A DNA stretch of 42,409 bases from the NCBI GenBank assembly GCA_022563755.1, contig JADFMT010000002.1, positions 1 through 42,409 of the forward strand. Direction: 5' to 3'. The notes beneath the pieces were generated by a model. It had not been told where the DNA came from, did no database searches, and was given only the letters and a program-made list of their open reading frames with translations. The first letter of the stretch is position 1; each line of letters begins with the position of its first letter. The position numbers were made by a program, and so were the translations under genes. Origin of the DNA: Patescibacteria group bacterium. GTDB taxonomy: Bacteria > Patescibacteriota > Minisyncoccia > HO2-45-28. Positions 6,963 through 42,409 of this stretch are shown in pieces.

Positions 6963-7718
6963 TTAGAGATAATCTAGCAAGCGTTCGTACTCAATAAATC
7001 GAAAAATCTTAAAACCGTAAGAGACGAGGAGCGCCATGTTGTCGGTGACCAAAAGGATTCCCAACAGTATCAAAAATATTCCTCCGATGACAGAAACTAC
7101 ATTTAAATATCGAGAAAGACCTGCAAGATGTCTGGAGGCCCAGCCAATGCCTAAAGCAATAGCTAAAAATGGAATGGCAAGGCCAAGTGAGAAAATAGAG
7201 AGTAAAAATGCGCCCTGAGACGCGGTTGCCGACGTTGAGGCAAGAAGTAAAATAGCGCCCAAGATCGGGCCCACACAAGGCGTCCATCCAAATCCAAACG
7301 CAGAGCCCAAAATGAGGGAGTTGAAAGAATTCCCCCGTTTAAATAAAGTCGGGACTTTAAATTGTTTTTCTCGTGAGAGGTATGGAATCTTTATGACATT
7401 CAACATGAAGAGCCCAAAGATAATGACAAAAATTCCGCCGATCCGAGTAAGCCATATTCGATACGGAGCAAATGCGATTCCGACGAGTCCCGCCAGGGTT
7501 CCAAAAATAATGAAAACAAGACTAAATCCAAAGACAAAGAAAATGCCGTTTAAGAAAATTTTCAGGCGCGCTCCTCTTGATTTTTTAGGGTCTTTGAGAT
7601 CTTCAAGAGAAACACCGCTTATAAATCCTAAATAAGCCGGCACCAAAGGCAGTGTGCAGGGGGCCAAGAATGTTAATAAACCAGCTATGAACGCCGGAAT
7701 AATTAATGCTAAATCCAT
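6963..7718 (-). CDS. ccdA: CcdA/DsbD-family thiol-disulfide electron transporter
   Basis: It is a polytopic membrane protein. The first conserved Cys lies in LAPCTLPLVPAYLGFISG and the second in GWTPCVGPILG, the signature of the DsbD/CcdA family. Confidence 0.85.
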   Translation of the reverse strand: MDLALIIPAFIAGLLTFLAPCTLPLVPAYLGFISGVSLEDLKDPKKSRGARLKIFLNGIFFVFGFSLVFIIFGTLAGLVGIAFAPYRIWLTRIGGIFVIIFGLFMLNVIKIPYLSREKQFKVPTLFKRGNSFNSLILGSAFGFGWTPCVGPILGAILLLASTSATASQGAFLLSIFSLGLAIPFLAIALGIGWASRHLAGLSRYLNVVSVIGGIFLILLGILLVTDNMALLVSYGFKIFRFIEYERLLDYL

Positions 7719-15154: not shown

Positions 15155-16679
<1,525 letters not shown>

Positions 16680-17019: not shown

Positions 17020-18168
17020 TCAAATATCACTGTCAAGGCCGTTATCCACAGCGATATTTTTGTATTCATAAGCGCTTGGACGAATTTTACGCTGCATTGT
17101 CTTGTAATCAACCTCAACAAGCCCAAATCGCGGCAAAAAGCCTTTATCCCATTCAAAATTATCCAAAAGCGACCAATAGAAATATCCCCGTACATCAACG
17201 CCGTTTTCTATCGCCTTACGAACCCAGCGAAGATGGTCGCGAATGAAAGCCGCTCGCTTTTCGTCTTTCGCATCCGCAATTCCGTTTTCCATAATATAAA
17301 TCGGTTTTTTATATTTGTATAAATCTTCTAGAACATGATAAATCCCTTCCGGATAAATCTCCCAGCCCATGTCTGAGATAACTTTATTTTCATTTTGATT
17401 GAACCTTAAACCCTGAATGCGGCTGTGAAAATAATAATTAAGGCCGATAAAATCCTGATGGTTTTTAATGTGATCTAAAAATCTGAAATTCCACCACCAA
17501 TCGGCAGCATGTTGAAGCAGCGCATTGATTCCTCTCCCCTCAAAATAGATATTATTTTTTGCGATGCCTACTTGCAGGTTTGAGTTTATCTTTTTTATTA
17601 CTTGATACGCCTGGATGTGTGCGTCCCTTAAATTTTTCAATATATCGATATATTGATATATTGATTTCTTTTGAGGCGGCCAAGTTCCTTTCAGATACGC
17701 ATTTGTTGCATAAAAGAGCGGTTCATTAAGGGTTATCCAAAATAACACGTCGCGGGAAAGTTCTTTAACAATCCTTTCTGCAAATCTGCTGAAATAAAAA
17801 CTAAATTTCTTATTTTTTAGTCCGCCTTTCTCTTGAAGCCATAGCGGAATCGTCCAATGCCAAAGTGTTACAAACGGTTCAAGATCGCGTTCGCGAAGCG
17901 CTTGTGTTACTTCTCGATAATGCTCAATTTCTTTTTCATTAAATTTGCCTTCCTCGGTCTCAATGCGCGCCCATTCAATAGACAACCGATGCGCATTGTG
18001 TCCCAAAGATTTAGCGATGCCAAAATCTTCTTGAAAACGACTGTAATGATCACATGCCCTGCCAGCATCGAAAACAGACGACCAGTTATTTTTTATCCCG
18101 CCTTCAACTTGATAAGCGCTGGTTGAAGCGCCCCAATAGAAATTTTTTGGAAAGTTAGGTTTGGACAT
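17020..18168 (-). CDS. Glycoside hydrolase family 1 (beta-glucosidase-like), short form
   Basis: It has FYWGASTSAYQVEGG at the N-terminus, TLNEP (acid/base Glu) and YIMENG (nucleophile Glu). At 382 aa it is shorter than the roughly 450 aa I recall as typical for GH1 enzymes. Confidence 0.85.
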   Translation of the reverse strand: MSKPNFPKNFYWGASTSAYQVEGGIKNNWSSVFDAGRACDHYSRFQEDFGIAKSLGHNAHRLSIEWARIETEEGKFNEKEIEHYREVTQALRERDLEPFVTLWHWTIPLWLQEKGGLKNKKFSFYFSRFAERIVKELSRDVLFWITLNEPLFYATNAYLKGTWPPQKKSIYQYIDILKNLRDAHIQAYQVIKKINSNLQVGIAKNNIYFEGRGINALLQHAADWWWNFRFLDHIKNHQDFIGLNYYFHSRIQGLRFNQNENKVISDMGWEIYPEGIYHVLEDLYKYKKPIYIMENGIADAKDEKRAAFIRDHLRWVRKAIENGVDVRGYFYWSLLDNFEWDKGFLPRFGLVEVDYKTMQRKIRPSAYEYKNIAVDNGLDSDI

Positions 18169-18174
18169 TAGAAA

Positions 18175-19170
18175 TTAGTTATTCGTCCTTTTTATTGCTT
18201 CCTTTGCAATCTCCCACATTTCGGGTTTATTTTCTACTTCTTTCAGCCAATACCACCATTCTACACCCCAAAAATAAAAGGTATCAAAACCCGAGCGCGC
18301 GGCGTACGCTAAAACGCCACGGAATACTTCCGGATTCATGGAAATATACTGTTCATCCACGTTAATCTCGTAGGTCATGCGCTTTGCCCATGATTCCCCT
18401 TGCAGCTCGATAATGACCGCGGGTTTATCACCCAGAACGAGGTTGATGAATCCGCGCTTTAAGCGAAAAAAAGAGGGTGGCAATGGATAGGTAAATGTGC
18501 CGAGCCATTCGTTCCAGATGACGCGATAAAGCGTTGAGCCGAAAATATCGGAACGCCGGGCAGCCGGAACCCAAAATGACAGTTCACCGGAATCGGTTAC
18601 CATAATAGGGCGCCCATCCAGTGAACGCACGAGCTCGATTTCGGCGTCAAGGAATTCTTTCGAAAAAGGAGGACATTCTCCGAACGCCAAAAAAGGTTCG
18701 TTCTCCACCTGCCACGTTTTAACCGCGGACGATTTTTTATAGCGATTTACAACTACTTCGATATATCGCAGTAGTTGTTTATTTTGCTCGGCTTCATCAA
18801 GCCTTTCTGCCCAATCCGGAATATGACATTCGGGCCAACGCGGGAGTTTGCGACCCACGGCAAGGATTACCTCAACGTTTCGCCTGCGAGCTTCTTGAAT
18901 TTGCCAATCCAAGCGCGAGAAGTTATACCTGCCTTGAGCGGGCTCAATTTCATTCCAATATGCCGGAAGTCGGATGTTTTTTATCCCAAGATCGTCAAAA
19001 AGGGCCAAATACACCTCTTTCGGATCCAGCCCAAAACGCTCGGCATAAAAAGATGAATAGGTTGCGCCAAACGTCTGGGGATTTAAGGACGGAGTGCGCC
19101 CGATAAGGATCGCGCCCACGCTTACGAGCATCACCATACCCCCGATTGCAATTTTAAGCCACGTCTTCAT
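18175..19170 (-). CDS. Membrane-anchored clan GH-A (TIM-barrel, GH5/GH42-like) glycoside hydrolase
   Basis: It has an N-terminal TM/signal anchor. IRLPAYWNEIEPAQGRYNFSRLDWQI and WQVENEP match the (beta/alpha)8 clan-A pattern with a catalytic NEP Glu. Confidence 0.6.
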   Translation of the reverse strand: MKTWLKIAIGGMVMLVSVGAILIGRTPSLNPQTFGATYSSFYAERFGLDPKEVYLALFDDLGIKNIRLPAYWNEIEPAQGRYNFSRLDWQIQEARRRNVEVILAVGRKLPRWPECHIPDWAERLDEAEQNKQLLRYIEVVVNRYKKSSAVKTWQVENEPFLAFGECPPFSKEFLDAEIELVRSLDGRPIMVTDSGELSFWVPAARRSDIFGSTLYRVIWNEWLGTFTYPLPPSFFRLKRGFINLVLGDKPAVIIELQGESWAKRMTYEINVDEQYISMNPEVFRGVLAYAARSGFDTFYFWGVEWWYWLKEVENKPEMWEIAKEAIKRTNN

Positions 19171-33534: not shown

Positions 33535-34587
33535 TTAACGATTGTTTATAGATTCGACCTCAACTCCATGCCCACGTTCTACCTCAATCCATCCTGTAGA
33601 TGCAGAAAGTCCAAGAAGAATCAAAAGTAAACTAATAATCCAAAACTTCGCGCCTTGGATACCGCGCTTCAGCTTATACCAAATCAGCGGGGTCAAAATG
33701 AGCAGGATAAGCGACCACCATCCAGCCGCAAAAGAAGCTTCGAAAACCCCCGCCGCAACTGGATGATCCGGAACCTCGGCAAGATTGGAGGCGATCATGT
33801 AAATGAACTGATTCCACGAAGCGTGAAAGATGGAATCTTCCCACCAATGCATGCCAAATAATCCATAGGTGAGTATAAATGCGCCAACAATTACAAGTGC
33901 GGTACCGGTCCAAAGATTTATTTTTCCAGACACTTTACTCATCCATTGAATGCTTTTCATTCCCAAAAGGGTTAACACTACAAGAAAAATGAGCGGCGTG
34001 GCTCTACCAAGTCCATGCACCAACCCAAGCCATCCGCCGACAGCCATTGAACCGGTTGAAGCAATATACGTCAACAAAACATAAAACGCAGGATTGGGAC
34101 AACCAATACCGGCATTTCCTAAAAACATTCCCAGCAAAAATGTTTTCGCGTATCCTTGCATAATCCATGCGGGGACGCGATGCGTAAATACGGGAAGCGG
34201 AATACGGAAAAGGTCGAGTTCGGTAAGCGCGAAAAGAAGCGCCATCGAACCAGCAATAACAAACATGACTCTCGTAAATTGGTCGAGGCCAAAGTATCCT
34301 CCAAGAAAGGCTGTGGCAATTCCATAGAGAGCGAGCGTTACCGCAAGTCCAAATCCAAACGCCACTGCGATACCAAGTGCTTTCTGTAATTTCTTTTCCT
34401 TTACCGCTAGTGGAATAATAACAAAAGCAAGCGGAAGCGTGCAAGGCAGAAAAATCATCGAAAGGCCCGCCGCAAACGAGAGAAACACCGAAATCGAATT
34501 ATCGCTTTGCACAGCTAGCCACAACAACCCGCTCGCAATAACGATAAAAAGCGCAAACGCTAAAATTGCAAGAAGTTTATTATTCAT
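33535..34587 (-). CDS. CcdA/DsbD-like polytopic membrane protein (second, larger paralogue)
   Basis: It has FLPCTLPLAFVIIPL in the first TM region and GIGCPNPAFYVLL in a later TM helix, i.e. two membrane-embedded Cys-Pro motifs as in DsbD-family transporters. There are about 9-10 helices. Confidence 0.6.
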   Translation of the reverse strand: MNNKLLAILAFALFIVIASGLLWLAVQSDNSISVFLSFAAGLSMIFLPCTLPLAFVIIPLAVKEKKLQKALGIAVAFGFGLAVTLALYGIATAFLGGYFGLDQFTRVMFVIAGSMALLFALTELDLFRIPLPVFTHRVPAWIMQGYAKTFLLGMFLGNAGIGCPNPAFYVLLTYIASTGSMAVGGWLGLVHGLGRATPLIFLVVLTLLGMKSIQWMSKVSGKINLWTGTALVIVGAFILTYGLFGMHWWEDSIFHASWNQFIYMIASNLAEVPDHPVAAGVFEASFAAGWWSLILLILTPLIWYKLKRGIQGAKFWIISLLLILLGLSASTGWIEVERGHGVEVESINNR

Positions 34588-37272: not shown

Positions 37273-37656
37273 CTAGCCAGGCCCAATATGTTCGAGGACA
37301 TTCCGCTTCGAACAATTTAGGTCTGGCTGAAAAACCCCTCGTAAATAATCGGCAGCTTTGATCGGATCGGCTTTCTTTCCACATGTAGAAATATCTACAC
37401 GAATATAGCCGCGTTCGGGCCAACCATGGACATGGACTGTAAGATGCGATTCGGAAAGCTGCAGCGTGGCGGTTAATCCTTGTGGAGAAAATTCATGTTT
37501 GAGTGGTTGCGCTCCCTCTTCCACAACCTTTACTCCAGCAACTTTCGCCGCTTCCCTCATGATCACAAGCATTTCCTCAGGATCCTGAGGAAGACAGCGA
37601 CAATGGAAAAGGTCATCGATAACGGTTGTGCCATAATGAACGCCCTCTGTCGTCAT
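37273..37656 (-). CDS. speH: S-adenosylmethionine decarboxylase proenzyme (SpeH type)
   Basis: It has LQLSESHLTVHVHGWPERGYIRVDISTCG, the ESH self-cleavage site and (T)WPE motif of class 1 AdoMetDC. AAGGAGG lies 6 nt upstream of the ATG. Confidence 0.85.
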   Translation of the reverse strand: MTTEGVHYGTTVIDDLFHCRCLPQDPEEMLVIMREAAKVAGVKVVEEGAQPLKHEFSPQGLTATLQLSESHLTVHVHGWPERGYIRVDISTCGKKADPIKAADYLRGVFQPDLNCSKRNVLEHIGPG

Positions 37657-37749
37657 TTCCCGCCTCCTTATTTTATGGTTGTGGTTTATTTAACCAAAAG
37701 GTACAACTAAAAATACAGTGTAGCGTTTTACTCACAAAAATCAAGACAG

Positions 37750-38325
37750 TCAAGGCTGTGGAAAACTAAAAAGAAAAACGGCTGCCGCAAATACCGTTGT
37801 CCACCATCCGTTCTTATTCACGCGTGCGGTTTGCGTTATGTTAAAGGTTTTTACAATTTTGCCAGACATCTTAAATACTTTCTCTCGTTCATCCCAAGAA
37901 ATATTTGGATCAAAATGAAGTCCAAGCGTAGCTGCAAGCATTTGCGCGGCAAGATCTTCTGCGTAATCCCCTGCATTCTGTTTTACCTTGCCGAAACCAT
38001 GGAATTCAGAAAGATAGCCGTACTGTTTCGTATCTTTAGGCACTGCAGCGCCAATAGAAGCGGCTAGCAGTCTGCCCGGTTCGTTCGAAGAAATTCGTGC
38101 ATGCACACTAAAAAGAATGCTGCCTTCTTTTCCTTTTAAATTTCCCAAACCTTCCTCGCGACTAATCCGCTTGCACCCAACGGGCAAAATACTTGAGAGC
38201 GATGATAATAAGTTAAACGGCGCAATACCTGCGTGGCGAAGGGCAACTTCAAATGAAGTTAATTCCTCTTTGTGCGCCCCAACACCTCGGGTAAAAAAAA
38301 CTTTCTCAGGCATCCAAATATTCAT
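37750..38325 (-). CDS. pdaD: Pyruvoyl-dependent arginine decarboxylase
   Basis: It has [40 protein letters not shown] (PdaD self-processing Ser-Ser region) and a C-terminal TTVFAAAVF. Its start overlaps the hpf stop by 4 bp. Confidence 0.85.
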
Positions 38326-39004: not shown

Positions 39005-39712
39005 TCACAATTTCTCTTCAATATCTTGAATTTCTTTCTCCATGTTTCGCCCTAACGTATCGAGTTCGCGAAGAACATGTTCTTTCCGGGCGCGTTCATC
39101 GGCTGAAAGTTTTTTCCCAGACAATTCTAAAATACGGAGTTCATCTAAAAGGTCGCGACGAAGTTCTGAGAGTCCTTCGCGAACCGAATCCTTAGCTTCC
39201 CTAATTTCCTTCGTTAGCAATCGCGCATTCAGTCGCTTTACTTTCCATGAAAAATACCAAAAAGCAGCTATACCCAAAGCCAATAAAACGACCACTAAAA
39301 ACGAAAGGAATGCGAATTTTATATTGATACCGCCAACCGTAATCCCAGAGACAATGGCCTTAAATACTCGCGGATTTGACCAGCTAGACGCGCTATCTTT
39401 GGCATGTAAAAGTCGCGCCCGCACTTCCCAATCGCCAGCCGTAAGCGGAACTTTCTCAGCAAGCACCCATTCGCCATTCACGTCGCTTCGCACGGTAAAA
39501 CGCACAGGCCGCGCGCCTTGCTTAGTTAGCTGAATTTGTACCGCAGAGTTCGGCCTAGAGACCCCTTCAATGTAGAGAATCTCATCCAATGGATAATACA
39601 CATCGGGGCTGATATTAATCGTAGGCGCAGGCAGATGCTCTGCGGCAATGAGAGTACCTGCAAATAAAAGAACCAAAGAAAGAGAGAAAGAGAATAATTT
39701 GAAAAGCTTCAT
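39005..39712 (-). CDS. Paralogue 1 of the tandem array: signal peptide, Ig-like ectodomain, one TM helix, cytoplasmic helical tail
   Basis: 235 aa. The signal peptide is MKLFKLFSFSLSLVLLFAGTLIAA. Ectodomain motifs are HLPAPTINISPDVYYPLDEILYIEG..NGEWVLAEKVPLTAGDWEVRAR..WSNPR. The TM helix is FAFLSFLVVVLLALGIAAFWYF, followed by a basic stretch. The tail has LSELRRDLLDEL...LSADERARKEHVLREL. Its start shares 1 nt with the stop of paralogue 2 (TAATG). Confidence 0.8.
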   Translation of the reverse strand: MKLFKLFSFSLSLVLLFAGTLIAAEHLPAPTINISPDVYYPLDEILYIEGVSRPNSAVQIQLTKQGARPVRFTVRSDVNGEWVLAEKVPLTAGDWEVRARLLHAKDSASSWSNPRVFKAIVSGITVGGINIKFAFLSFLVVVLLALGIAAFWYFSWKVKRLNARLLTKEIREAKDSVREGLSELRRDLLDELRILELSGKKLSADERARKEHVLRELDTLGRNMEKEIQDIEEKL

Positions 39713-40365
39713 TAAATGTCCTTTAGCCTTCGATTAATTTCTCTTTCAACATGTTCAAGATCGCGCAATAACTTATCGCGATGTTCTTCTTCTTCTTTAG
39801 AAAGTGATCGTTTTCGCGCTAAATGCCGAAGCTCTTCGGCAACATTGCGGCGAAGTTCTGAAAAATCCTGCTCGATCTGGAGCCCGGTTTTTTCGCGAGC
39901 AACCTGGCGCATTCGAAAGAAAAGATAAAAAATGACACCGGCGGCAATCATTAAAAGAAATGCAATCGCGCTAAATCTTATATTCACCCTGCCAATGGTG
40001 ACTCCGGTGATAATAGATTTAATTATCCGCGGGTTTGACCAAAGAGAGGTTCTCTCAGCCTCGATGACGCGAGCACGAACCTCCCAGTTCCCTCCTTCCA
40101 GCGGAACTCTTTCAGCGAGCACCCATTCGCCGTTTTGGTCACTTCTCGTAACCAGTTTTAACGGTTTTGCTCCTGGTTTTAAAAATTGGATTTGAAGAGT
40201 CGCATTCGGTTTTGCCCTCCCCTCAAGATATAAAATTTCGTCCACGGGATAATAAATATCAGGGTTGACATAAATGGTTGGGGTCGGCAAATCAAAGGCG
40301 GCCGAGGCAACTCCGACAAAAAGAAGAAAAAGGACGACAATAACTGAATAATGATATCTAGTCAT
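39712..40365 (-). CDS. Paralogue 2 of the tandem array (same architecture)
   Basis: 217 aa. It has DLPTPTIYVNPDIYYPVDEILYLEGRAKPN..NGEWVLAERVPLEGGNWEVRAR..WSNPR, a TM helix, and the tail IEQDFSELRRNVAEELRHL..LSKEEEEHRDKLLRDL. It has an ATGA overlap with paralogue 3. Confidence 0.8.
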   Translation of the reverse strand: MTRYHYSVIVVLFLLFVGVASAAFDLPTPTIYVNPDIYYPVDEILYLEGRAKPNATLQIQFLKPGAKPLKLVTRSDQNGEWVLAERVPLEGGNWEVRARVIEAERTSLWSNPRIIKSIITGVTIGRVNIRFSAIAFLLMIAAGVIFYLFFRMRQVAREKTGLQIEQDFSELRRNVAEELRHLARKRSLSKEEEEHRDKLLRDLEHVEREINRRLKDI

Positions 40366-41057
40366 AGAATGTCTCTTAATTTTTTCTCAATTGACTGTTC
40401 GGCTTCGCGAAGTCCTCTTAAAAGATGTTGGCGGTGATCCTCTTCTTTTGAGGAGAGCGGTCCCTGTCCGGCGCGTTCGGTTAAATGTTCGAGCTCGTCT
40501 AAAATGTTTCGCCTGAGCTCGGCAAAATTTTGCTCAATTAATACTTCGGCAGCTTCGCGCTCTTTCTCGCGCGTGACTTTCTTTACCCGTAAAAAGAAAT
40601 ACAAAATGGCAGCACCGCTTAAAATTAAGATGATAATCAAAAGAAAAATCAAAAAAGAAAATTTAATTGCAGCACCCCCAATACTCACGCCCGTTGCAAT
40701 CACGCGAATGATTCGCGGATTTGAGAAAGCAGATCCCAGTCCTGAACTTTCAATGATGCGCACTCGCACTTCCCAATTTCCGGCATTTAAAGGAACTTTC
40801 TGGGCAAACACCCATTCGCCGTTTATATCGCCCCTTACAATAAATTTTAAAGGCTTTGCGCCATCTTTTCGAAAGTTCACCTCAACATTGGTATTTGGCC
40901 GCGCTCTGCCCTCCAGATATAAAATTTCATCAAAGGGGTAATAGATATCCGGATTTACACCAATGGTTGGCGCGGGTAGATGCCTCACAGCAATTCCGGC
41001 CTCAGGAAATAAAAAAAACAAAGAAACAATCACGAGTAAAATAAGAAACGGTTTCAT
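40362..41057 (-). CDS. Paralogue 3 of the tandem array (same architecture)
   Basis: 231 aa. It has HLPAPTIGVNPDIYYPFDEILYLEGRARPN..NGEWVFAQKVPLNAGNWEVRVR..FSNPR, a TM helix, and the tail IEQNFAELRRNILDELEHL..LSSKEEDHRQHLLRGL. It has an ATGA overlap with paralogue 4. Confidence 0.8.
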   Translation of the reverse strand: MKPFLILLVIVSLFFLFPEAGIAVRHLPAPTIGVNPDIYYPFDEILYLEGRARPNTNVEVNFRKDGAKPLKFIVRGDINGEWVFAQKVPLNAGNWEVRVRIIESSGLGSAFSNPRIIRVIATGVSIGGAAIKFSFLIFLLIIILILSGAAILYFFLRVKKVTREKEREAAEVLIEQNFAELRRNILDELEHLTERAGQGPLSSKEEDHRQHLLRGLREAEQSIEKKLRDIL

Positions 41058-41758
41058 GAAATATTTTCTATTTTTTTCTTAATCGTTTCCTCGACCTCTT
41101 TAAGCTCGCGCAAAAGATGCTCGCGATGTTCTTTTTCTTCCTCGCTTAATTTTCCATCTTTCAAGCGTTTTTCTATATGCTCTAACTCTTGAGTAATTTT
41201 TGCTCGAAGCTCGGCAAAATTCTGATCAATGACTGCGCCCACAGACTCAAGTTCTTTTTTGCGAAGCGCCTCTTGAAATTTTTCCTTCATGCGACGCGCT
41301 TGGATCATATAATACCATGCGCCTGCCGCAGAAATGATCAAAAGAATGACAATAATAAACGTAAGAAGAGCAAATTTAATCGTAACACTGCCAATTGTAA
41401 TTCCGGTAACAATTACTTTAAAAATGCGTGGGTTGGACCACGTAGATACCGCCCCTGAACTCTCGGCTACGCGCGCTCTTACCTGCCAATCTCCTTTCTC
41501 TAATGGGACTTTCTCCGCAAACACCCATTCTCCATTCCCATCGCTCTTTGAGGTAAGCGTAATCGGTTTTGCGCCCTGCTTTTGAAACTGAATCTGAACC
41601 GTGGAATTTGGCCGTGCTCGTCCTTCCAGATACAAAATTTCATCCCCGGCGTAATAAATATCCGGGCGAATCGCAATAGATGGGATTGGCAAATGCCCTG
41701 CAGCCCATCCCATCTTCGCAAAAAATATCATTGCAAGAAGAATTAGAATTTTTTTCAT
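41054..41758 (-). CDS. Paralogue 4 of the tandem array (same architecture)
   Basis: 234 aa. It has HLPIPSIAIRPDIYYAGDEILYLEGRARPN..NGEWVFAEKVPLEKGDWQVRAR..WSNPR, a TM helix, and the tail IDQNFAELRAKITQELEHI..LSEEEKEHREHLLREL. It has an ATGA overlap with paralogue 5. Confidence 0.8.
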   Translation of the reverse strand: MKKILILLAMIFFAKMGWAAGHLPIPSIAIRPDIYYAGDEILYLEGRARPNSTVQIQFQKQGAKPITLTSKSDGNGEWVFAEKVPLEKGDWQVRARVAESSGAVSTWSNPRIFKVIVTGITIGSVTIKFALLTFIIVILLIISAAGAWYYMIQARRMKEKFQEALRKKELESVGAVIDQNFAELRAKITQELEHIEKRLKDGKLSEEEKEHREHLLRELKEVEETIKKKIENIS

Positions 41759-42409
41759 GTCATGTTGTTTAACCGTTTCTCAATTTTTTCCTCGCACTCA
41801 CGTAAATCCTTAAATAACTTTTCGCGGTGGTTTTCTTCTTCTGCTGAAAGCCTCTTGCCGCCGTGCCTTTTTTCTAGATGTTCTAACTCTTCCATAATAC
41901 TTTCTCGAAGTTCATTAAAATCCTGTTCGAGGTGCGCTTGAGTGGCTTCGTGTTCCTTCTCGCGTACTTTTTGCTCAAGCGCTTCGGTTTTTTGACGAGT
42001 CTCCTGCTCGAACACCAAACGCTGAATCTTGCGTATACGCAAGACGGAATAGACAAAAAGCGCGATGCCCAATGCAAGAATGAAGATAAGAAGCAGAATG
42101 ATCGGCACATATCGTATTTTAATGGACCCGAATAGAAAGCCTGAGACCACTGAACGAATAATCCGAGGATTTGACCAATCAGAAATTCCGGGATTATTGA
42201 TGACTCGTGCCCTGACGGTCCATTCACCGCGCGCAAGCTCCAGGCGATCGGCGAAAAACCATTCTCCATTCGAGTTTACCGCAACCTGCAAGCGAACCGG
42301 CTGTCTATCTGGTTTTTCAAAAAATAATTCTACCTCAGATAGGGAAGTCGCGATTCCTTCAATATAGAGCGTCTCTTCTAGAGGGTAGTATTTAGTCGGC
42401 GCAACACTA
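41755..42409 (-). CDS. Paralogue 5 of the tandem array, partial (N-terminus beyond the right window edge), more divergent
   Basis: The reading frame stays open upstream of the tracked TTG at 42291. Hand translation from 42408 gives SVAPTKYYPLEETLYIEGIATSLSEVELFFEKPDRQPVRLQVAVNSNGEWFFADRLELARGEWTVRARV..WSNPR, a TM helix, then LEQDFNELRESIMEELEHL..LSAEEENHREKLFKDL. Confidence 0.75.
   Translation of the reverse strand, partial: SVAPTKYYPLEETLYIEGIATSLSEVELFFEKPDRQPVRLQVAVNSNGEWFFADRLELARGEWTVRARVINNPGISDWSNPRIIRSVVSGFLFGSIKIRYVPIILLLIFILALGIALFVYSVLRIRKIQRLVFEQETRQKTEALEQKVREKEHEATQAHLEQDFNELRESIMEELEHLEKRHGGKRLSAEEENHREKLFKDLRECEEKIEKRLNNMT

Follow-up and report, generated by a model that had tools for sequence, protein, structure and literature searches.

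Analysis of a 42,409-nucleotide contig from a Patescibacteria group bacterium (JADFMT010000002.1, assembly GCA_022563755.1; the whole stretch is referred to here as the window) revealed five paralogous genes at its end. They encode an undescribed, Patescibacteria-specific family of membrane proteins with a strongly constrained cytoplasmic domain of no known family. Upstream of the family in related loci are genes for a dockerin-like protein and for a cohesin protein anchored in the membrane, and the latter is often fused to the first family copy. On this basis we tentatively propose, at somewhat less than an even chance, that the family supplies the membrane base subunits of a cohesin-dockerin cell-surface complex.

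Five paralogous genes at the end of the window

Open reading frame (ORF) listing and translation identified five head-to-tail genes between positions 39005 and 42408, all on the minus strand. Each stop codon shares 1 or 4 bases with the start codon of the next gene (TAATG or ATGA), which points to a single translationally coupled operon. This is the largest array seen, as other arrays hold one to three copies. The first-pass annotation of this DNA, made without database searches, covered positions 39005-41758, and copy 1 lies outside these coordinates; it clusters with the copies found directly after the cohesin gene in other loci. A scan for promoters and terminators 3' of the array was uninformative. 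The features of the array are listed below, with immunoglobulin-like (Ig) domain, transmembrane (TM) helix and subtype (see below) given for each copy.

41755->42408, minus strand: copy 1, subtype E1T1, N-terminus truncated by the window and contig end
Parts of copy 1, minus strand: Ig domain 42112-42408; WSNPR 42163-42177; TM helix 42037-42111; cytoplasmic tail 41758-42036
41054-41758, minus strand: copy 2, 234 amino acids, subtype E4T1 ('middle')
Parts of copy 2, minus strand: signal peptide 41699-41758; Ig domain 41375-41698; WSNPR 41426-41440; TM helix 41300-41374; tail 41057-41299
40362-41057, minus strand: copy 3, 231 amino acids, subtype E4T1
Parts of copy 3, minus strand: signal peptide 40986-41057; Ig domain 40662-40985; FSNPR 40713-40727; TM helix 40587-40661; tail 40365-40586
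39712-40365, minus strand: copy 4, 217 amino acids, subtype E4T1
Parts of copy 4, minus strand: signal peptide 40297-40365; Ig domain 39976-40296; WSNPR 40027-40041; TM helix 39913-39975; tail 39715-39912
39005-39712, minus strand: copy 5, 235 amino acids, subtype E4T4 ('last or only copy')
Parts of copy 5, minus strand: signal peptide 39641-39712; Ig domain 39317-39640; WSNPR 39368-39382; variable FG loop 39389-39412; TM helix 39242-39316; cytoplasmic helical hairpin 39008-39241

Conservation of the sequence motifs

The five products can be aligned over their full length (MAFFT); identity to the first sequence is 35-47%, and 41 columns are invariant. Their E-values against the family profile range from 1e-80 to 1e-110, far beyond chance. 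Motifs on both sides of the membrane that the first-pass annotation had read by eye were reproduced among the invariant columns (P..YY..E.LY.EG, NGEW, G.W.VR.R, SNPR, ELR....EL and LS..E). In an alignment of 118 family sequences about 30 positions are still at least 90% conserved, including Y.E.LY.EG, GEW, G.W..R.R, S.WSNPR, one tyrosine of the TM helix and E191, L192 and L217 of the tail.

Analysis of 172 unique family sequences revealed that these motifs are positional and not a product of composition: the mean frequency of the top residue per tail column was 0.525, compared with 0.188 (standard deviation 0.001) when each tail was shuffled internally. Two features described earlier as invariant are less strictly kept. 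The tryptophan of WSNPR is replaced by phenylalanine in copy 3 (40362-41057), and the tail consensus with two histidines fits four copies and fails in copy 5 (39005-39712), which carries the other tail type. No tail histidine is conserved across the family, the histidine positions marking the T1 tail subtype only. Identity between orthologues is lower in the tail (38-42%) than in the ectodomain (53-55%).

Architecture and the Ig-like ectodomain

An AlphaFold2 model of copy 5, built from the family alignment, reached a predicted local distance difference test (pLDDT) score of 93.4. It contains a signal-peptide helix, nine strands within residues 31-132 and a continuous helix at residues 133-197, which comprises the TM segment (approximately 133-157) and its cytoplasmic extension; the chain then passes through a six-residue loop into a second helix (204-234). 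The modelled architecture thus shows the family to be type-I membrane proteins, with a predicted cleavable signal peptide, one Ig domain outside, one TM helix and a cytoplasmic hairpin.

The suggestion that the central part of the ectodomain follows the pattern of bacterial Big-type Ig-like domains is borne out by several results. The model gives a nine-strand sandwich, and a Foldseek search against the PDB returned matches solely to Ig-like domains, among them KIR/LILR receptors, adhesin Ig repeats (including 6xi3, 4p99 and 4kdv) and RbmA. This similarity is generic to the Ig fold (E of at least 1.5e-5 over about 100 residues). At the sequence level, the best Pfam match among the five copies was that of copy 2 to Big_13 (PF19077; E 2.8e-4, 21.8 bits); none of the window copies reached the Big_13 gathering cut-off of 27 bits, and 14 of the 118 family members matched the model at E<0.01. 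The ectodomain has the Big_13-like fold and strand pattern G.W ... L.DG.Y.V.A..D.AGN.S. An exhaustive search of 1.84 billion representatives with the family profile yielded 1,854 proteins, and the top matches were giant proteins (1,200-6,800 amino acids) with 9-47 tandem repeats that match family columns 50-120. The consensus of these repeats is GTAEPnSTV..D....TAD..G.W.....L.DG...V.A.A.DAAGN.S. The family ectodomain is distantly related to such Big_13-type repeats of giant adhesins.

In this comparison, S.WSNPR of the family stands immediately after the AGN.S position of the Big_13-like repeats, at the start of strand G, and is a family-specific elaboration within a folded Big_13-like domain. 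It had been proposed as a structural or processing site; because it lies inside the folded Ig domain, a structural role is likelier than processing. No LPXTG or PEP motif of a sortase or PEP-CTERM-type sorting signal was found in the five copies, and the TM helix of the family precedes a conserved structured tail of 65-90 residues, unlike the short basic ends of sorting signals.

Constraint on the cytoplasmic tail

The helix-loop-helix predicted earlier for the tail agrees with the model, in which the helices at residues 133-197 and 204-234 have a pLDDT of about 90. Hydrophobicity has a period of 3.45-3.8 residues in both tail helices and of 2.0 in the ectodomain, which identifies the tail helices as amphipathic and packed as a hairpin. 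About 45-50% of tail residues are charged.

Selection was estimated from codon alignments of 10 independent orthologue pairs (synonymous divergence, dS, 0.13-0.98), and the ratio of nonsynonymous to synonymous rates (dN/dS) was pooled by region:

ectodomain: 0.107
FG loop: 0.287
TM helix: 0.205
tail: 0.086, the lowest of all regions

Between copy 5 and its 93%-identical orthologue (locus L052), the ratio was 0.16 in the ectodomain and 0.145 in the tail. The dN/dS of the tail does not exceed that of the ectodomain; the tail is therefore at least as constrained as the ectodomain and is not a passive anchor. This upholds half of an earlier argument from tail conservation. The other half, an intracellular partner or signalling role, found no counterpart beside the array: clustering of neighbouring ORFs in related loci revealed no conserved gene for a cytoplasmic partner. 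The recurrent neighbours were the dockerin-like and cohesin genes, the family itself, antisense shadow ORFs, a two-TM protein of about 280 amino acids (five loci) and small TM proteins upstream of the array (four loci each).

No known domain corresponds to the tail: it has no Pfam, NCBIfam or PDB sequence family above threshold. Searches of Pfam and NCBIfam with the five copies (E<=10) and with the 118 members gave nothing at or above the cut-offs, only scattered coiled-coil and TM families. The single recurrent tail match was DUF3461 (PF11944), with a best window score of 20.6 bits, below the gathering cut-off of 27.4 bits; it occurred at E<0.01 in 18 of 118 members (best E 1.2e-4) and covers only the C-terminal helices of that model. 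Homology to ApoE was considered and rejected, as the PDB profile search returned ApoE helices alone, at E of about 1e-3, a resemblance of amphipathic helices. The Foldseek search with the full model gave no informative match for the helical tail.

Distribution and the cohesin and dockerin neighbourhood

All informatively named homologues of the five proteins are from Patescibacteria (Nealson-, Giovannoni-, Brenner- and Ryanbacteria); with named homologues of the adjacent cohesin protein, the range extends to Magasanik- and Pacebacteria. Among genome loci, two automatically labelled metagenome-assembled genomes (Saccharibacteria and Gammaproteobacteria) are the sole exceptions. Neither Pfam nor NCBIfam has a model for the family, and source records say only 'hypothetical protein'. 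Literature searches on cohesin or dockerin in the candidate phyla radiation (CPR) or Parcubacteria returned no description of the family or of its gene cluster.

Genomes and metagenomes yielded 46 distinct related loci, in 35 of which the DNA preceding the first family copy extends for about 250 bases or more. The order was the same in 33 of the 35: a dockerin-like gene, sometimes a gene for a short cohesin protein, a gene for a cohesin protein of about 430 amino acids and one to three family copies. A membrane-anchored cohesin in the same cluster as the array was found in the related loci only. Copy 1 is truncated by the contig end and is of the type that follows the cohesin gene; on this basis, we predict cohesin and dockerin genes immediately past position 42409.

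The cohesin protein of a related locus was modelled with AlphaFold2 (pLDDT 89). Its N-terminal domain resembles type-I cohesins (target-normalised TM-score about 0.75, root-mean-square deviation 2.4-3.0 A over about 147 residues) and is followed by two Ig/FnIII-like domains, a TM helix and a short His-rich cytoplasmic helix. The match to Pfam Cohesin fell below the cut-off of 24.1 bits (E 1e-4, 23 bits); some homologues carry a precomputed PF00963 assignment, and several are named 'cohesin domain-containing' by NCBI. A PDB sequence search with the profile of this protein found nothing, and the fold search alone was informative. The dockerin-like protein has a signal peptide, a short N-terminal domain, a Pro/Thr linker and an invariant D.NCDG...D calcium-loop motif. 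Its matches to Dockerin_1 (E 5e-4 to 1e-3) are below the cut-off, and those to PDB dockerins have E-values of 0.06-0.5.

Fusions join the two parts of the cluster. About 20 of 120 listed cohesin-protein homologues are 644-766 amino acids long, and the examples of this class that were checked, P0129 and an ORF of locus L008 (NCBI protein P0270), proved to be fused in frame to the first family copy. Further natural proteins carry cohesin domains directly on the Ig-TM-tail module of the family.

Two side observations concern these loci. The C-terminus of the cohesin protein (locus L002, 9100-9226, and homologues) has a near-invariant cytoplasmic juxtamembrane motif, W..H.HHL.HAFRED, a His-rich stretch that may have its counterpart in the T1 tails, which are rich in His and Glu. 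The two-TM protein of about 280 amino acids is encoded between the first and last family copies in five related loci and does not occur in the window. Its extracytoplasmic part is helical, and one juxtamembrane segment looks HAMP-like by eye; the sole Pfam match of the protein is a weak one to 4HB_MCP_1 (E 0.04). Its genes are at the following positions:

L008, 8614-9492
L009, 9190-10023
L014, 836-1696
L020, 155-1051
L048, 32-487

Subtypes and their order

Clustering of 55 copies from loci of known gene order revealed a 'first' type and a 'last or only' type. In loci with two or more copies, the first type (E1T1) invariably comes immediately after the upstream cohesin gene. E4T4 is invariably the final copy or the single one. 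Scoring of the 118 alignment sequences and the five window copies with separate ectodomain and tail profiles gave 23 E1T1, 35 E4T1, 65 E4T4 and zero E1T4. The order in the window array is E1T1, three E4T1 and E4T4. The middle copies are chimeric: their ectodomain and TM helix are nearer to the last type (0.54 versus 0.44 identity), and their tail is nearer to the first type (0.38 versus 0.30 identity). T1 and T4 tails are each kept across class-level divergence, with a fixed pairing to ectodomain types. Subtypes that are ancient, ordered, non-redundant and co-expressed suggest that they form a hetero-oligomer.

Possible function of the family

If the family forms the base of a cohesin-dockerin complex, the other parts would be the membrane-anchored cohesin protein and the secreted dockerin-like protein with its PamT-like N-terminus. 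The TM helices and cytoplasmic hairpins would bundle different subtypes and the cohesin protein into a hetero-oligomeric anchor, and the hairpins may also tie this anchor to a cytoplasmic partner. The Ig domains would make up an exposed collar, with the variable FG loop facing away from the membrane, and the cohesin would capture the dockerin-bearing protein. We infer oligomerisation of the tails from their amphipathicity, the conserved subtype order and the fusions. The architecture, tail constraint, subtype order, synteny and fusions are established by the analysis; cohesin-dockerin binding and a part in adhesion are, like oligomerisation, inferred.

Several points weigh against this proposal. 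The proposed complex is deduced from gene context and single-chain models. In two loci, L011 and L047, the 1.4-10 kb of DNA upstream of the family copy contains no cohesin gene. Scores for the dockerin stay under the Pfam cut-off, and some orthologues lack the second calcium loop. Because the array runs up to the end of the contig, the cohesin and dockerin genes fall outside the window, and their presence in this genome is extrapolated. Derivation of the family from the Ig-TM anchor of the cohesin protein was also considered and rejected: hhalign gave just 25 columns at 30% probability, so the two anchor modules offer no evidence of common descent.

A further possibility, which we think unlikely, gives the family the part of a transmembrane coupling element in a hitherto undescribed adhesion apparatus of Parcubacteria-type Patescibacteria. 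This would be a cohesin-dockerin surface complex whose ordered, non-redundant base subunits reach an intracellular partner through their conserved hairpins, either for outside-in signalling or as a cytoskeletal tether, and the exposed subunit would be slipped-strand switched in its FG loop, which is comparable to complementarity-determining region 3, in some lineages.

Three other explanations are less well supported than base subunits of a cohesin-dockerin complex. The family could be transmembrane receptors, with an Ig domain that senses a ligand or host contact and a hairpin that relays the signal to an intracellular partner. The type-I single-pass layout with an Ig ectodomain, the presence of KIR/LILR receptors among the best structural matches and purifying selection on the tail at least as strong as that on the ectodomain all fit this explanation, as does the two-TM protein with its weak 4HB_MCP_1 match and HAMP-like segment inside the array in five related loci. 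However, neither the window nor the majority of loci contain that protein, and the Foldseek similarity is one common to Ig folds in general. An output protein such as a kinase, a regulator or a nucleotide cyclase is not conserved beside the array, and the tail has neither a catalytic or known signalling motif nor a Pfam or NCBIfam model match, so that we regard a receptor function as improbable. Passive membrane anchors, in which tail similarity would reflect low-complexity E/K/R composition or a functionless stop-transfer spacer, would explain the high charge of the tail and its weak matches to ApoE, DUF3461 and coiled coils, which are typical of amphipathic charged helices. The column conservation lost on shuffling, the lowest dN/dS of any region and the retention of T1 and T4 tails in fixed pairing with their ectodomains contradict this explanation and make it very improbable indeed.

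The remaining explanation draws on the Pam pilus of CPR bacteria. PamC, PamD and PamR, all membrane-anchored, combine Ig/FnIII-like folds with a TM helix at the C-terminus, and an additional strand is present at the N-terminus of PamR (bioRxiv 10.64898/2026.03.03.709456); the family has a conserved N-terminal strand, LPxPTIxVxPD. Its members could be assembly or anchoring factors of a donor-strand-exchange filament, similar to the PamC/PamD chaperones or the PamR terminator, with the dockerin-like protein as a PamT-like tip. The N-terminus of the dockerin-like protein indeed matches NCBIfam CPR_pilus_PamT (E 3e-8), but at 33 bits against a cut-off of 240 and over profile positions 8-80 only, the signal peptide included. 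In addition, the five window proteins and the cohesin protein match no Pam model of NCBIfam even at E<=10, the Ig domain is predicted to be complete with its N-terminal strand in cis (pLDDT 96), and no pilin-like gene is conserved in the cluster. Pam homologues are reported predominantly from Saccharimonadia and Microgenomatia, and the text of the paper mentions neither Parcubacteria nor Paceibacteria (bioRxiv 10.64898/2026.03.03.709456). We therefore consider a role in a Pam-like filament quite improbable, more so than a receptor function.

The family is widespread, constrained on both sides of the membrane and tied to cohesin and dockerin by synteny and fusion, and is thus a concrete candidate, open to testing, for a second type of attachment structure in Parcubacteria-type lineages. 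A large part of bacterial diversity belongs to Patescibacteria, which are thought to live attached to other cells; to our knowledge, apart from type IV pili and the Pam pilus, reported recently, their surface machinery has been characterised very little. The family is also a rare instance of a bacterial type-I membrane protein whose cytoplasmic tail matches its ectodomain in constraint.

Comparison with known systems

Comparison with the Big_13 (PF19077) repeats of giant adhesins revealed the same fold and core pattern (EG.A.P...V ....NGEW ... L..G.W.V.A.. ... S). Unlike the repeat adhesins, the family has a single Ig domain per protein, with an N-terminal extension (LPxPTIxVxPDxYYPLDE) and SxWSNPR after the D.AGN.S position; the domain is followed by a membrane-proximal beta-hairpin, the TM helix and the conserved cytoplasmic hairpin. 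The best Pfam score is also short of the gathering cut-off (21.8 versus 27 bits).

In relatives, the array is linked to a type-I-like cohesin protein (33 of 35 loci), is often fused to it and has a dockerin-like gene upstream, and in these respects it resembles the anchoring scaffoldins of cellulosomes, whose cell-tethered cohesin modules bind proteins that carry dockerins. Cellulosomal anchoring scaffoldins use S-layer homology modules or sortase signals for attachment, whereas anchoring in the family is by TM helices and cytoplasmic hairpins. Moreover, the dockerin-like protein has no glycoside hydrolase, the host is a Patescibacteria cell and the window proteins themselves have neither cohesin nor dockerin.

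Like PamR, PamC and PamD, the family is CPR-specific, Sec-exported, Ig/FnIII-like and held by a TM helix, and is encoded in one operon with the surface structure that it would serve. It differs from them in the lack of detectable sequence similarity, in having one domain in place of their two and in its long conserved cytoplasmic hairpin, which is not described in the Pam paper. While Pam pilins are reported predominantly in Saccharimonadia and Microgenomatia (bioRxiv 10.64898/2026.03.03.709456), informatively named homologues of the family are from Parcubacteria-type candidate phyla.

A looser parallel is found in hosts that are likewise genome-reduced and attached to other cells. The family shares with the adhesins of Mycoplasma a single-pass layout, a functional cytoplasmic C-terminus and, in some orthologues, homopolymer or dinucleotide tracts within the coding region, yet has no sequence or fold relationship to them, and no cytoskeletal partner is known from Patescibacteria. 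Mycoplasma type-I adhesins are very large proteins with conserved cytoplasmic tails and repeat-driven phase variation.

Repeat tracts in orthologues and copy 5

Perfect repeat tracts, either G9/G10 or (CT)8-20, were found inside E4T4 orthologues of related loci:

L020, 1435-1443: G9 in the FG loop of the last-copy (E4T4) orthologue, in frame
L008, 10273-10281: G9 at the same FG-loop spot, E4T4 gene frameshifted
L009, 10318-10333: (CT)8 at the same FG-loop spot, E4T4 gene frameshifted
L001, 5123-5162: (CT)20 in the signal-peptide codons of the E4T4 orthologue, in frame
L047, 2494-2503: a further perfect tract inside the E4T4 orthologue

Only three long dinucleotide repeats occur in about 350 kb of related loci, and the (CT) tracts of L009 and L001 account for two of them. 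In the window, copy 5 has a degenerate CT-rich tract, TTCTCTTTCTCTCTTTCTTTGG (39677-39700, minus strand), in its signal-peptide codons. This is the exact site of a two-codon indel and substitutions relative to the 93%-identical orthologue of L052, and elsewhere the two differ by point changes only. As a pattern in the DNA, the tracts of the orthologues hint at slipped-strand phase variation of an exposed surface protein. If confirmed, they would provide CPR bacteria with a clear example of phase variation at contingency loci.

Homopolymers of 7-10 G/C bases were also observed in the neighbouring cohesin and dockerin-like genes of some related loci (L002 5177-5184, L023 5278-5284, L025 98-104, L029 705-711 and L044 2460-2469). 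These sites include a stretch that overlaps a called 1,200-amino-acid gene of L002, and the L044 site is unannotated.

Other genes of the window

The other genes of the window are those of an ordinary chromosome and encode DnaB, RecR, FtsQ, SerRS, Ddl, 16S rRNA, MreB, MurA, DnaE, GatB, SecA, S-adenosylmethionine decarboxylase, pyruvoyl-dependent arginine decarboxylase and HPF. The two decarboxylase genes (polyamine synthesis) are adjacent at positions 37273-38325, directly downstream of HPF and the array. A functional link of the array to the downstream HPF, SecA and decarboxylase genes was considered and rejected, as these genes are not conserved beside the array in L001 and L002, the loci checked.

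The single 16S rRNA gene matches the Rfam bacterial small-subunit model end to end (model positions 1-1533 over 1,525 bases), and it is adjoined by genes for a GH1 glycosidase and a GH5/GH42-like glycosidase (17020-19170 and 15155-16679). Two separate genes for DsbD_TM-type (CcdA-like) membrane proteins occur at positions 6963-7718 and 33535-34587, and their presence is consistent with disulfide handling in exported proteins.

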